From a virus (lineage: Duplodnaviria > Heunggongvirae > Uroviricota > Caudoviricetes), in IMG/VR virus record IMGVR_UViG_2713896902_000005, positions 1 through 36,473 of that record: DNA of 36,473 nt. One strand, given 5' to 3'. The translations under genes were made by a program, and so were the position numbers. The notes under the pieces were generated by a model. That model did not search any database and had not been told where the DNA came from. It saw nothing but the letters and a program-made list of their open reading frames with translations. Below are positions 28,036 to 33,869 of this stretch, in pieces. Positions within the stretch are counted from its first letter, which is position 1, and each line of letters starts with the position of its first letter.

Positions 28036-28125
28036 ACAACATGTACCTCCTGTATACATATTACATGATTGAAATGAACCTTCAAGATACTTGTACCTTA
28101 ACGGTACAAGGGTTTTAATTTCGTT
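28036..28125. promoter_or_regulatory. cI-cro intergenic switch region with candidate operators
   Basis: Perfect palindrome CTTGTACC-TTAAC-GGTACAAG at 28090-28110 plus related TGTAC sites (CATGTACC, TGTATACA). Confidence 0.55.
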
Positions 28126-28800
28126 ATGAAAACAATCCATGACATCCGGCGGTCTAACGCCAGAAAACTGAGAGATGGTGTTGGCGGGAATTCTTCCTTT
28201 GCCACTATGATTGATCGCGAGCCAACCCAGACCAGCAGGTTTATGGGAGATGGTGCTACTAAAAATATCGGTGACAGCATGGCACGACACATCGAAAAAT
28301 GTTTCGACCTGCCTGTCGGATGGCTCGATCAAGAACACCAGACAACGAACATCACAAAAAAACCTGATGTTTCAATCACTAATAAACAAATCACATTAGT
28401 CCCTGTCATATCATGGGTACAGGCCGGAGCATGGAAAGAAGTTGGATATTCTGAGGTTGATTTGAGCACAGCAGAAACGTATCCCTGCCCTGTACCCTGT
28501 GGGGAAATGACTTATATCTTGCGGGTGATAGGTGATTCAATGATTGATGAGTACCGCCCGGGAGACATGATTTTTGTCGATCCTGAAGTACCTGCCTGCC
28601 ACGGTGACGACGTTATTGCATTGATGCACGATACAGGTGAAACCACCTTCAAAAGGTTGATAGAAGATGGGACACAGCGTTATCTCAAAGCGTTAAACCC
28701 AAACTGGCCTGAGCCTTACATTAAGATCAACGGTAATTGCTCTATAATTGGAACTGTGATTTTCTCAGGAAAACCAAGAAGATACAAAATCAAAGCCTAA
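28126..28800 (+). CDS. cI: CI-like repressor with LexA-type S24 autopeptidase domain
   Basis: 224 aa; N-terminal HTH; C-terminal GDSM serine motif (RVIGDSMIDEYRPGDMIFVD); divergent from cro. Confidence 0.85.
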   Translation: MKTIHDIRRSNARKLRDGVGGNSSFATMIDREPTQTSRFMGDGATKNIGDSMARHIEKCFDLPVGWLDQEHQTTNITKKPDVSITNKQITLVPVISWVQAGAWKEVGYSEVDLSTAETYPCPVPCGEMTYILRVIGDSMIDEYRPGDMIFVDPEVPACHGDDVIALMHDTGETTFKRLIEDGTQRYLKALNPNWPEPYIKINGNCSIIGTVIFSGKPRRYKIKA

Positions 28801-28812
28801 TCAATGTTTATG

Positions 28813-28837
28813 AACCTGCTTCGGCAGGTTTTTTTAT
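28813..28837 (+). terminator. Rho-independent terminator of cI
   Basis: AACCTGC-TTCG-GCAGGTT followed by a 7-T run, 12 nt after the cI stop. Confidence 0.7.
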
Positions 28838-28839
28838 AC

Positions 28840-28872
28840 TTGACAATGTACCCATGAGATACATATTGTACC
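28840..28872 (+). promoter_or_regulatory. Candidate PL/OL-like promoter-operator region
   Basis: TTGACA at 28840-28845 followed by operator-like half-sites ATGTACCC and ATTGTACC similar to those between cI and cro. Confidence 0.3.
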
Positions 28873-28951
28873 AAAGAGAAACAACAAACAGGCAGGACGC
28901 CCACGAAGTAGCCGCCAGGGGCATATGAAGTCCTGGATGATTCGTTAGTAA

Positions 28952-28976
28952 CAAAAAAAGCGTCGTACAGGACGCT
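28952..28976 (-). terminator. Rho-independent terminator of the DUF1311-like gene
   Basis: Minus-strand RNA AGCGUC-CUGUAC-GACGCU followed by a 7-U run. Confidence 0.55.
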
Positions 28977-29000
28977 TCGCTCTTTAACAATCTGGATGAC

Positions 29001-29516
29001 TTATCGGTCAGATTTAAACTGGGGTTCTGGCAAAACTGGTGGTGTTGAATCTTCAAATCGTAACCAGTGTTCCCAAATATCATGTGTTCGTAATTTCTGT
29101 AGACTAATTTGACGCGATGCAATTGCGGAATTAGTGGTTACTCCACCAGAAGCATCGCTCTCTACTGACGTTGAGGCTTTTTCTACTAATTCTGACCAAG
29201 CTTCACTTTCTGCGTCAAAAGCTTCTGTTAAGTCCCGCAGACGCTGTGGCTCATTTTTATGGTCTTCCTTCAAACGATTCAAAGCGGCAGTTGAATACTT
29301 ATTCCTGACCCATTCGATCTGAGTTAGCTGAATCCGCAGACAATTATCTATATCAATGGTTGTGTTCTGAGGCATGTCAGAACAAGAAATATAAAAGGTC
29401 ACAACTCCACCGTTCAAACTACTGCCCGGTTCGATTAAAACATTAGAGGAATTTGACGTAGTCGGCAATATTAATGCTAACGACAAAACCACATGTTTAA
29501 CAGAAATCGCACCCAT
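29001..29516 (-). CDS. Secreted/periplasmic protein, DUF1311 (LprI-like) candidate; lysogeny-expressed moron
   Basis: 171 aa with N-terminal signal-peptide-like segment (MGAISVKHVVLSLALILPTTS); convergent with cI; own terminator; moderately AT-rich. Confidence 0.45.
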   Translation of the reverse strand: MGAISVKHVVLSLALILPTTSNSSNVLIEPGSSLNGGVVTFYISCSDMPQNTTIDIDNCLRIQLTQIEWVRNKYSTAALNRLKEDHKNEPQRLRDLTEAFDAESEAWSELVEKASTSVESDASGGVTTNSAIASRQISLQKLRTHDIWEHWLRFEDSTPPVLPEPQFKSDR

Positions 29517-29803
29517 TTAAATTGCCCTCTTAAGAACAAGGTCATCCAGATTAACCGAAACCTGGTTATTGGGGAATAACCAAATCCACCTCGCCTGATG
29601 TGGCTAAAAGCAGGCACATAACAGCTAAGTATTTTCAACCAGAGAGAATCCTTAGCGTTGTGGTGAATGCGCAGGCTGATGCGCGAAAGACATTGCAGCT
29701 ATTGCGGAAAAGAGCTGTTCGGCGGGGCAATTAAATGCCTGTGAGAGTCTGAAATAACCGCAAGCCGGAGATCAGCACCGGTCACCACAACAGCCACTGC
29801 TTT

Positions 29804-29840
29804 GGCGGTACCAGTTTGTACACTTACTTCCGGCTGGTAC
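29804..29840 (+). terminator. Terminator-like hairpin in the early-left leader
   Basis: GCGGTACCAG...CTGGTACCGC (10-bp stem, 19-nt loop) followed by TCTTTTT. Confidence 0.4.
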
Positions 29841-29929
29841 CGCTCTTTTTACAAAACAGAGAAGAGCATCACCGGACGACGGGCTCATAACCCAATCCAT
29901 CCGGGCGGCTGCCACCGCAGGTGTTCTTC
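29841..29929. repeat. Perfect 15-bp inverted repeat with 59-bp spacer
   Basis: ACAAAACAGAGAAGA (29841-29855) and TCTTCTCTGTTTTGT (29915-29929). Confidence 0.7.
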
Positions 29930-29987
29930 TCTGTTTTGTGGAGAAACCAACCGGCCTTGCAGGGTCGATATGATGAGGAGCAGCAAA

Positions 29988-30350
29988 ATGGCTAGCGAAC
30001 GCAGTACCAACGTGCAGGAATTTATCGGGGAGCTGGACGGCGGCGTATTTGAAACCAAAATCGGCGCAGTTCTCAGTGAAGTCGCTTCCGGTGTGATGAA
30101 CACGAAAACCAAAGGTAAGGTCTCGCTCAACCTGGAAATCGAACCATTTGATGAGAACCGTGTGAAAATCAAACACAAACTCTCATATGTTCGCCCGACT
30201 AACCGCGGGAAAATTTCTGAAGAAGACACCACCGAAACGCCGATGTATGTCAATCGCGGTGGTCGCCTGACTATTCTGCAGGAAGACCAGGGACAATTAC
30301 TGACTCTTGCCGGTGAACCTGACGGAAAACTACGCGCAGCAGGTCATTAA
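29988..30350 (+). CDS. yfdP: YfdP-like early-left protein (internal ATG of the 29802 ORF)
   Basis: 120 aa from ATG 29988 with GAGGAG 7 nt upstream; length and order match the E. coli CPS-53 yfdP-Q-R-S cluster (recalled, not searched). Confidence 0.45.
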   Translation: MASERSTNVQEFIGELDGGVFETKIGAVLSEVASGVMNTKTKGKVSLNLEIEPFDENRVKIKHKLSYVRPTNRGKISEEDTTETPMYVNRGGRLTILQEDQGQLLTLAGEPDGKLRAAGH

Positions 30351-31240: not shown

Positions 31241-31368
31241 TTTCATTACTGCAAATGCCCCTGCGGGGGCATTTATGGAAACGTAATTGACTCAATAATC
31301 GCCTGAAGGCGAGGGTTTTCTTTAACCAAAATTCAGCGCGGTGCAGCGCATATAACGTGGAGAACAAA

Positions 31369-32517: not shown

Positions 32518-32736
32518 GTGGAGAAACATATGCTGAACCTCGATTGTGTTCCAATCTCAACTTATTGCAAAGAAACTGGCGAAACTCCTGAAGCAATAAA
32601 CAAACGTGTACAGCGCGGTGTTTGGCGTGAAGGTGTTCAGGTTTTAAAGGTTGAAGGCGTTAAGGAGAGGTGGATTGATCTTAGTGAGGTTGCAAAATGG
32701 GCCAGACAAAACTGCTCAAACTACCGCGCGGCGTAA
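32518..32736 (+). CDS. Excisionase-like DNA-binding protein
   Basis: 72 aa ORF immediately upstream of and overlapping int; basic winged-helix-like sequence. Confidence 0.5.
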   Translation: MEKHMLNLDCVPISTYCKETGETPEAINKRVQRGVWREGVQVLKVEGVKERWIDLSEVAKWARQNCSNYRAA

Positions 32737-33869
32737 CAATCAGGAAACACCGCCAGGGCGAAACGATCAATATAACTTTCACCTACAAAGGAGTTAAATG
32801 TCGTGAGCCTCTTTCCAATCTGGAAGTAACACCAAAGAACATAAAATACGCCGAGCGCACACTCGGCGAAATTCATAATAAGATCGAAAGGGGAACATTC
32901 ATTTATGCGGAATATTTTCCCCGTTCTGCTCGTTTGAAAATTTTTGGTAATGCTGCTGCAGGCAAAACGGTAAAAATGTACCTGGACGAATACCTTGAAA
33001 TCTGCGAAACGAGAAAACTTTCACCCTCTACGATTGGTGGTTATAAAAAATGCCGTAGTGCGTTAGCCTCACTCCACATTTGCCCTGCAAGTGAATTAAC
33101 ACCAGCAATCCTGAAAGCGTGGATTCAAAGCCAGAAAACGACCTTAAAAACAATTCGCAACCAGTTATCTTTCCTGCGGTCAGCACTTGATGAAGCCGTA
33201 ACCGATGGGGTACTTCAAATTAACCCCGTATCGTTGGTAACTGCTTCGCGCTACCAAAGTGATAAGTCAGAAGCAGAAAGCAGCTACGTGGTTGATCCGC
33301 TATCACCAGCAGAAGTTGATGCATTACTAGCAGCAGCCGGAAACAAACAATGGGAAAATCTGTTCCGGTTCGCTATACATACAGGCCTGCGTAGTTCTGA
33401 ATTATGTGCCCTTCGATGGCGTGATATCGACTTTGTTGGAAAAACTGCCCATGTCCAGAGCGCAAGTGTTGTCGGTGTTATCAAAGGGACAAAGACAAAA
33501 GCCGGTACCCGTAAAGTTGAACTGACTGAAGAAGCAATGTTGGCGCTGATAAATCAGAAGCCATTTACATTCATGAAGGATGCTACTGTCTTTGAAGATC
33601 CAAAGACCAATAAGCCCTGGGCAAGTGCTGATGCAATCAGGAAAAAAGCATGGGTGCCAACATTGCGAAAAGCAGGTATTCGTTACAGAAATCCATATCA
33701 AACTAGGCATACATTCGCCACCCGCCATATCAGCCGGGGAGCAAACCTGTTTTGGCTTGCAGCTCAAATGGGGCATAAAGGGCCGGAAATGTTATTTCGT
33801 CATTATGGTTCATATTTAAAGGAATATGACGGTAATACGACCAGCAATATCACAAAAAAAGCCACTTAA
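32697..33869 (+). CDS. int: Tyrosine integrase
   Basis: 390 aa; catalytic-domain motifs RHTFAT, HKGPEMLFRHYGSY; N-terminal arm-binding region. Confidence 0.85.
   Translation: MGQTKLLKLPRGVTIRKHRQGETINITFTYKGVKCREPLSNLEVTPKNIKYAERTLGEIHNKIERGTFIYAEYFPRSARLKIFGNAAAGKTVKMYLDEYLEICETRKLSPSTIGGYKKCRSALASLHICPASELTPAILKAWIQSQKTTLKTIRNQLSFLRSALDEAVTDGVLQINPVSLVTASRYQSDKSEAESSYVVDPLSPAEVDALLAAAGNKQWENLFRFAIHTGLRSSELCALRWRDIDFVGKTAHVQSASVVGVIKGTKTKAGTRKVELTEEAMLALINQKPFTFMKDATVFEDPKTNKPWASADAIRKKAWVPTLRKAGIRYRNPYQTRHTFATRHISRGANLFWLAAQMGHKGPEMLFRHYGSYLKEYDGNTTSNITKKAT

Follow-up and report, generated by a model that had tools for sequence, protein, structure and literature searches.

An sRNA-17 homologue and a conserved three-way-junction RNA with a tRNA-like tip lie side by side upstream of yfdP in a lambdoid prophage

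In phage lambda, the first gene transcribed from the early-left promoter PL codes for the arginine-rich antiterminator N, and the nutL site and the N leader lie between PL and the first early-left gene. The put sites of phage HK022 are about 70 nt long and consist of two stem-loops with no closing helix. There is one copy per early operon; putL is described as following closely on PL, and putR as being placed about 270 nt from the start of PR. Both act on downstream terminators, and their effect requires the zinc-binding domain of the RNA polymerase beta' subunit but no phage protein. Another described RNA comes from an mEp460-like prophage of E. coli K1 RS218. It is sRNA-17, a small RNA (sRNA) of ~193 nt that was defined by rapid amplification of cDNA ends (RACE) at the 5' and 3' ends and by Northern blotting, and is held by its authors to act in trans under the control of ArcA (Sun et al. 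2020, PMC7719688). Here we analysed a stretch of 36,473 nt (IMG/VR virus record IMGVR_UViG_2713896902_000005, positions 1 to 36,473; "the window" hereafter), which is a lambdoid prophage of the SfV / ST64B / mEp460 / CPS-53 / e14 type. Just upstream of yfdP, its first early-left gene, the window carries a terminator-like hairpin and a perfect inverted repeat. The original prediction had seen in them a single structured leader, either a cis-acting RNA element like the put sites or a binding site for a factor, on which expression of the xis-int operon might rely in place of N. The observation behind it was for the most part real, whereas the proposed mechanism was mostly not supported. We favour a different explanation and give it a probability of roughly 0.5: the two structures would be adjacent units of a modular non-coding leader, and the second of them, module C, would be an autonomous, processed mimic of a tRNA arm that acts in trans. 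This type of leader is typical of SfV / ST64B / mEp460 / e14-type lambdoid prophages. The features discussed below are listed in Table 1.

Table 1. Positions of the leader elements and neighbouring genes in the window.
Feature	Position	Strand	Basis or remark
cI-like repressor	28126-28800	+	cro-like open reading frame (ORF) opposite
Candidate PL (TTGACA, 16 nt, CATATT)	28840-28869	+	Promoter scan, 10/12 matches
Conserved structured RNA element directly downstream of PL (PL-proximal element)	28875-28952	+	Covariance model R2, 96.4 bits
Terminator of the minus-strand moron gene	28957-28978	-	Hairpin, terminator scan; directly before boxA
rrn-type boxA GCTCTTTAACAA	28979-28990	+	One exact match in the window vs 0.18 expected
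Moron gene, 171 aa, LprI-like	29001-29516	-	phrog_7681, E = 1.1e-78; weak Pfam LprI match
sRNA-17 homologue	29656-29849	+	Multi-branch body and terminator T1
Intrinsic terminator T1 (hairpin 1)	29804-29850	+	Stem and U-tract
Module C, 91-nt three-way-junction RNA	29850-29940	+	Fold, covariation, covariance model R1
Invariant tip GGGCUCAUAACCC (GGG-CUCAUAA-CCC)	29881-29893	+	
Conserved GGAGAAAC and small hairpin P4 (29952-57/29962-67, loop UGCA)	29941-29967	+	
Shine-Dalgarno sequence of yfdP, GAGGAG	29975-29980		
yfdP, first early-left gene	29988-30350	+	phrog_204; RefSeq annotation of near-identical loci
yfdQ, yfdR, DUF551 genes	after yfdP	+	
xis	32518-32736	+	
int	32697-33869	+	

The hairpin that had been called terminator-like is a genuine intrinsic terminator, T1. 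Its G+C-rich stem of 13 bp (29804-29816 with 29832-29844) contains a perfect 10-bp core (29805-14/29834-43), encloses a 15-nt loop and is followed on the transcribed strand by the tail CUUUUU (29845-29850), as expected for this kind of terminator. The predicted fold has a free energy of -21.2 kcal/mol (z = -5.4 against shuffled sequences), and the atypically large loop is the sole reason why a consensus scan for terminators overlooked it. RNA folding of 211 nt around both structures likewise gave a strongly structured plus strand (z = -6.5 against shuffles).

T1 belongs to an RNA that has already been described. The full-length primers, the Northern probe, the RACE primers and the aligned sequence of the published study all map to the interval listed for the sRNA-17 homologue. 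The 5' primer matches exactly at 29656-29688, and 95 of 96 nt are identical to published sRNA-17 over 29754-29849. The orientations of the probe and of the RACE primers place the RNA in plus sense, the same as yfdP. The published 3' RACE end, obtained at the near-identical RS218 locus, corresponds to window position ~29848-29849, inside the U-tract, indicating that hairpin 1 is the intrinsic terminator of sRNA-17. By sequence, then, the RNA encoded here is the same as sRNA-17. Its body is closed by the helix GUUGUGGUGA/UCACCACAAC (29657-29666/29782-29791). The 5' end of sRNA-17 abuts the closing helix of the preceding module, a cassette boundary; this end may be processed rather than a primary start. 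The published work concerns the same prophage type and the same position upstream of yfdP, but it does not describe the modular array, the relation of T1 to yfdP or the module that follows (module C). Hairpin 1 is already explained by a published sRNA, and the idea of one single leader element has to be given up: the strong structure on the yfdP strand is there, but its first hairpin is the 3' end of sRNA-17.

In the K1 lysogen, the early-left genes beyond T1 are essentially silent, yfdP having 0.49 normalised reads (PMC7719688); either termination at T1 or repression of PL may be the cause. Replacement of the sRNA-17 body by a cat cassette raises yfdP about 96-fold (PMC7719688). To judge from the primer design, the cassette probably reads towards yfdP, and the rise is likely to be a polar effect and not functional evidence.

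Directly after T1 comes the inverted repeat. It had been described as a perfect 15-bp repeat with a 59-nt spacer at 29841-29929, just upstream of the first early-left gene; the repeat, its spacer and its place ahead of yfdP were confirmed, but the arms lie about 10 nt further on, at 29851-29865 and 29925-29939. They form the core of a longer helix: the repeat extends to 25 nt at 84% complementarity, and in the predicted fold (-46.5 kcal/mol, z = -7.6) the closing helix P1 has 21 bp (29850-70/29920-40) and encloses the arms P2 (29872-76/29900-04) and P3 (29905-08/29915-18). An alignment of 29 distinct homologues supports this three-way junction. In it, 95% of the cells are paired and 10 pairs are changed on both sides (six in P1, two in P2 and two in P3); one P2 pair occurs as GC, UA, AU and UG, and another as AU, GC and GU. 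The observed covariation and pairing were not attained in any of 500 shuffles, and slid controls were 36-53% paired. The covariance model built for the module (R1) scored 106.9 bits on the plus strand and 39.5 on the minus strand; this is its only match in the window, and the PR side gave none. Furthermore, two pairs are G·U or U·G in 18 and 26 of the 29 homologues, and two others in 9 and 6; on the other strand these become A-C mismatches. The frequent G·U pairs and the strand-specific model score indicate that the RNA strand is the yfdP strand and exclude a DNA palindrome.

The module corresponds to no described family that we could find. No Rfam 15 family reached its gathering threshold in the whole window, and at these thresholds none covered the homologous modules in 8 related loci either. 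At E <= 10, a search of 28800-30100 gave four weak matches at 28800-28881 and 29447-29588 and none overlapping 29589-30100. Literature searches on the core sequence, on yfdP or ymfH together with sRNA, and on tRNA-like mimics of prophages returned only the sRNA-17 paper (PMC7719688).

Conservation is strongest in the tip of P2 and not in the P1 helix. Most positions of the block 29878-29899 (alignment positions 29-50) are invariant among the homologues, and the core is kept in at least seven genera (Escherichia, Salmonella, Klebsiella, Citrobacter, Kosakonia, Mixta and Yersinia). Copies from Klebsiella, Yersinia and phage-plasmids have this core embedded in P1 and P3 sequences that are entirely different. 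The P2 arm is the constant part of the module, while the surrounding helices and the neighbouring genes are interchangeable. In searches with the basic local alignment search tool (BLAST), the intergenic region appeared as a mosaic in which 29783-29990 travels with yfdP, and, within the second structure, the unpaired core was shared most widely. Some part of 29517-29990 has a match in 2894 of 5426 complete E. coli genomes.

The 13-nt tip reproduces the anticodon stem-loop of the E. coli initiator tRNA without a mismatch, and over CGNCGGGCUCAUAACCCNA 17 of 19 nt agree. The tRNA sequence used for this comparison is 100% identical to an annotated tRNA-Met gene, which we take to be the initiator species; each of the 5426 E. 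coli genomes carries it, at a median of 4 places. With its 7-nt loop CUCAUAA, three G-C pairs, U33, the anticodon CAU and a purine at position 37, the tip has the features of a tRNA anticodon arm. The variant loops UUCAUAU and GUCAUAU keep U33-CAU-A37. Across the core variants, the three G-C pairs and U33-CAU are kept except in the decayed copy of e14, and A37 except in this copy and in the ST64B-type loop (CUCAUUA). What module C shares with initiator tRNA and with tRNA-like RNAs such as the YrlA-type Y RNA is the copied anticodon stem-loop, the adjacency to tRNA genes and, in Klebsiella, a 3' R-CCA. It differs from a tRNA in having no D arm, no T-loop and no cloverleaf; in the window it has a 21-bp closing helix and no CCA.

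The genomic contexts of the module are varied. It precedes yfdP in 90 copies; in 25 other copies with enough sequence, the first gene is yfdR, an rdgC-like gene, xis or others. A hairpin with a U-run abuts P1 in about 120 of 136 related copies, the main exception being the copies linked to tRNA genes. Copies that head early-left operons carry GGAGAAAC and a small hairpin after P1, just before the Shine-Dalgarno sequence of the first gene, and GGAGAAAC is kept whatever gene lies downstream. Its GGAGA can pair with the T1 U-tract, which would stretch P1 to about 25 bp; this pairing is predicted in nearly all early-left-type copies. The fold of P4 alone is not exceptional.

In Klebsiella phages, the core starts 5-6 nt after a tRNA-Arg, tRNA-Asn or tRNA-Thr gene, and the copies lie in the interval between Q and the lysis genes that come after it. 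These copies (L004 2508-2580, L005, L021, L043, L052, L056, L065 and L082) have a different P1 of 6-7 bp and a different P3. R-CCA, a tRNA-like 3' end, follows the closing helix in 10 of 10 Klebsiella variants though their flanks differ. A copy in Yersinia alsatica follows a tR'-like terminator and stands ahead of a holin gene; here and in the Klebsiella copies, a strong intrinsic terminator lies within about 100 nt downstream. A scan of IMG/VR for the core found in the window yielded at least 120 stretches, and every distinct copy among them folds as this three-way junction. A scan for a second class of core, ACGGGNUCAUAUCCCAAUCUA, likewise gave at least 120 stretches (e.g. L250-L329), mostly phage or phage-plasmid contigs of 50-100 kb. 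In this class, 158 of 180 copies have a tRNA gene on the same strand within 1.5 kb, and many loci hold two copies 279 nt apart (e.g. L250 10090-10450). In the variants shown, each copy is followed by a GUUGYGG-type cassette; one subclass lacks P3, and one phage-plasmid subclass has a P1 of about 11 bp. A scan of genome contigs used too loose a pattern (about 30 bits) and returned mostly chance matches in unrelated phyla; only the Enterobacterales loci were real.

One locus in a P1-like phage-plasmid (with pacA, and beside a Tad2 anti-defence gene) has the module between other RNA modules and tRNA-Ser, and the nearest ORF of at least 45 aa starts about 430 nt downstream. The sRNA-17-body module also occurs beside tRNA-Ser in a P1-like phage-plasmid, and BLAST found 29650-29792 in a 97-kb plasmid. 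Two kinds of closing helix frame the cassettes of the prophage leaders and of the phage-plasmid arrays (window 29657-29791; L001, L006, L010, L013, L015, L016, L026 and L056): RAGRGCAUY...RRUGYYCUY, which includes module C, and GUUGUGG...CCACAAC, which includes the sRNA-17 body. The contents of the cassettes vary, and some have T-arm-like GGUUCGAUUCC hairpins. The occurrence of the module in such different settings speaks for an autonomous RNA module and not a yfdP-specific leader or a put-type antiterminator.

From these results we propose the following sequence of events. T1 ends sRNA-17 as a Rho-independent terminator, and module C, which lies beyond it, would be made only by polymerases that pass T1, presumably after prophage induction. 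Passage without N might be provided further upstream by the PL-proximal element together with boxA. Module C would then be cut from the transcript, here by RNase III acting on the ~25-bp P1; copies linked to tRNA genes could be released by tRNA-processing enzymes. Once freed, module C would act in trans as a small, stable tRNA look-alike. The most speculative step is a decoy role, in which it would occupy a factor that recognises the CAU anticodon arm.

Several observations weigh against this proposal. Both the transcript of module C and its processing are predictions. The rise of yfdP on deletion of sRNA-17 perhaps reflects cassette polarity and not lost termination. The early-left-type copies are tightly linked to the upstream terminator and to GGAGAAAC with its hairpin downstream, which fits a cis-acting leader too. 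Both pattern scans required the core, and its invariance in those sets is partly by construction; BLAST matches found without requiring the core likewise centre on it. Of the anticodon stem, just three base pairs remain. The copy in e14 of E. coli K-12 has lost CAU (loop UUAAUAA). As e14 is a defective prophage, this decay may be uninformative, or the loop may be dispensable. Finally, tRNA searches did not recognise the module. ARAGORN found no tRNA in the window, in its default settings, including the armless/mitochondrial mode, it left the CAU arm uncalled in every copy, and there was no Rfam tRNA match at E <= 10. The one default-mode match of ARAGORN and those obtained at lowered thresholds were mostly on the opposite strand and had other anticodons.

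One alternative is a module that works in cis as a processing and stability element. RNase III would cut P1, detach the coding early-left mRNA from the non-coding array ahead of it and set the 5' end and the translation efficiency of this mRNA; the tip would serve for recognition or be there incidentally. A substrate of RNase III has to span about two turns of helix, which P1 does with its 21 bp and even more with the U-tract/GGAGA pairing. The U-run directly before the module in most copies and the position of GGAGAAAC and P4, just before the Shine-Dalgarno sequence of whichever gene is first, would also fit, and RNase III cleavage of the lambda N leader and of the early processing sites of T7 offers a parallel. 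However, the core is still kept where P1 has only 6-7 bp (Klebsiella) or about 11 bp (the phage-plasmid subclass), tRNA arrays offer no mRNA to process, and it is the P2 tip, not the helix read by RNase III, that is most conserved. We regard processing in cis as unlikely. A processive antiterminator of the put type appears improbable. In this reading, the nascent RNA would bind RNA polymerase and carry it, without N, through later terminators of the early-left operon (in Klebsiella and Yersinia, of the late operon). The locus does resemble HK022: in both, a lambdoid phage without N has a structured RNA where an early operon begins, and this RNA has been proposed to spare N. There is no N-like ORF, and the module invariably stands first in an operon that phages turn on for lytic growth. 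Terminators on which it could act are present as well: the strong ones downstream of the Klebsiella and Yersinia copies, and a weak terminator-like hairpin at 31299-31312, between yfdQ and yfdR. On the other hand, the module starts 980 nt after PL and directly after T1, leaving the passage of T1 unexplained; the window has one copy, none of it on the PR side, and the structure is a closed three-way junction. With filters off, the best match of R1 in the HK022 PL/PR region had E = 0.92 and was on the wrong strand. Moreover, the tRNA arrays of phage-plasmids have no operon to antiterminate, and late operons already have Q. The comparison with the put sites drawn in the original prediction fits module C poorly.

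Two further readings do without any function of the RNA. Module C could be the relic of a phage tRNA gene (tRNA-Met or tRNA-fMet) that hitch-hikes in arrays. The identity with the anticodon arm, the tRNA genes adjacent to the module in other phages, the decayed core of e14 and the T-arm-like hairpins of neighbouring modules would agree with such an origin. Yet compensatory changes keep all three helices, the core persists across the enterobacterial genera named above while the helices around it are replaced, and more than half of the complete E. coli genomes contain some part of the region; a decaying pseudogene would not hold a fold that is not that of a tRNA. We consider a functionless relic hardly probable. 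That the repeat acts as DNA, as a cruciform or as a site for a dimeric protein such as a xis-int regulator, would be suggested by its perfect 15-bp arms and by the RNA fold of the minus strand, which is also stable (z = -6.2). Against this, the G·U-rich pairs would not match in DNA or on the opposite strand, and the model score is strongly strand-specific. In addition, the Klebsiella and phage-plasmid copies have entirely different arms around an unpaired core that does not vary; for a palindrome bound by a protein, one would expect the reverse. The factor-binding site of the original prediction is therefore very improbable. Other phage RNAs offer partial parallels. The P1 c4 and P4 CI RNAs are likewise structured, lie in leaders and are presumably processed by the host from a longer transcript, but they show no sequence or model similarity to module C. 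The species 1 and 2 RNAs of T4 are stable small RNAs within a phage tRNA cluster and may be likened to it.

More generally, these prophages, P1-like phage-plasmids and phages of Klebsiella and Yersinia might carry cassette-like small RNAs that copy parts of tRNAs, with module C serving as a decoy of the initiator arm at the onset of lytic growth. We hold this view to be unlikely as it stands. If it were true, module C would shield translation initiation from a host factor that attacks or inspects the CAU arm; a VapC-type toxin with initiator tRNA as its substrate, or a different anticodon nuclease of phage defence, would be a candidate target. Such a decoy would parallel the tRNA genes carried by phages, which are thought to replace cleaved tRNAs, and would be a purely RNA-based counter-measure in the arms race between phages and tRNA nucleases. 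The ~1-kb leader would in that case be an anti-defence RNA array and not a regulatory leader. If module C is a processing or antitermination element instead, early-left expression without N becomes directly testable, with the PL-proximal element, boxA, T1 and module C as the candidates. In either case, module C represents a well-supported and abundant RNA family that is undescribed in Rfam and in the papers searched, and the space of N in this prophage group is filled by modular structured RNAs, some of which imitate parts of tRNAs.

For N-independent read-through of T1, the PL-proximal element together with boxA (28875-28990) is, as far as the sequence allows a judgement, more likely the relevant site than the two hairpins. 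The PL-proximal element is about 65-78 nt long and occurs in 36 variants behind several clearly different promoter/operator sequences. In its alignment, 95% of the cells are paired, and three hairpin pairs and one pair of the closing stem are changed on both sides. In the window, model R2 matches this one site only, and it has no match in the PL/PR region of HK022. The boxA that follows was identified with what we take to be the consensus. The motif has been retained in 21 related loci; where positions are given for both elements, it stands about 83 nt downstream of the PL-proximal element. It lies 870 nt upstream of the two hairpins, and there is none within them. A possible boxA in 'CGCUCUUUUUACAA', at the junction of T1 and P1, was rejected, as its GCUCUUU is not kept in homologues. 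The leader shares with lambda nutL and the N leader its position between PL and the first early-left gene, and its long helix could be an RNase III site. In contrast to lambda nut, boxA is followed by no boxB-like hairpin of the GNRA type, and the locus lacks an N gene. For this phage, antitermination based on RNA or on host factors is plausible.

Two other readings of module C were discarded or gave no signal. A hammerhead-like 'CUGAUGA' of the Klebsiella copies consists of bases that are paired in P2 and that differ in other copies. As for an antisense function, no target is evident for the loop: TTATGAG occurs 7 times in the window against 3.9 expected, a chance frequency, with no telling site among them. 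The C4 matches that Rfam reports in mEp460 lie elsewhere and not at module C.

Upstream of the leader, the candidate PL overlaps an operator-like repeat, ATGTACC..ATACAT, and the operator-like 22-mer recurs between cro and cI (28041-28062). Prophage e14 of E. coli K-12 has this promoter and these operators too. The interval from PL to yfdP measures 1.1 kb, and its sole real gene is the LprI-like moron on the minus strand. The moron is placed between PL and the RNA array, and its protein has a hydrophobic N-terminus that looks like a signal peptide when judged by eye. As it is transcribed against the early-left direction, PL transcripts must cross it in antisense. In some relatives (L039, L042, L059, L086 and L091), the first PL gene stands directly after the PL-proximal element and codes for a small protein, M..(Y/F)TCSFCG..EL, which resembles a zinc ribbon and is not found in the window. 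In the Rha region of mEp460 (L002 1-163), Rfam matches to isrK and to the C4 antisense RNA lie beside the rha antirepressor gene; no isrK/C4 equivalent was found in the window.

That no N-like ORF is visible in this region was borne out. Between PL and yfdP, the only plus-strand ORFs of at least 30 aa have 38, 62, 45 and 44 aa, and neither the ORF list nor the Pfam and PHROG scans, which covered the 62-aa and 44-aa ORFs and gave no match, revealed a candidate for N. The window thus lacks the arginine-rich first PL gene of lambda-type N/nut systems, and the phages SfII, SfV and SfIV also lack N according to the genome analysis of SfIV (PMC3851460). The arginine-rich ORF of 44 aa (29600-29734, plus strand) was considered as N and rejected: it reads a conserved RNA motif, GUGGUGAAUGCG, and has no family match. 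A stop-free frame runs from 29802 to 30350, through T1 and module C into yfdP. We rejected it as coding sequence because the length of P3 varies out of frame (homologues measure 91-116 nt) and because the module precedes unrelated genes. For both the 44-aa ORF and the in-frame extension of yfdP (29802-29987), the best explanation is a conserved RNA sequence that happens to be open to translation. The whole arrangement is also present in e14 of E. coli K-12, where the annotated coding sequence ymfH (L249 2576-2887) spans an sRNA-17-like module, T1 and module C; ymfH is probably a mis-called ORF over non-coding RNA. Phage annotations, for example mEp460_036, likewise put hypothetical proteins over the leader region.

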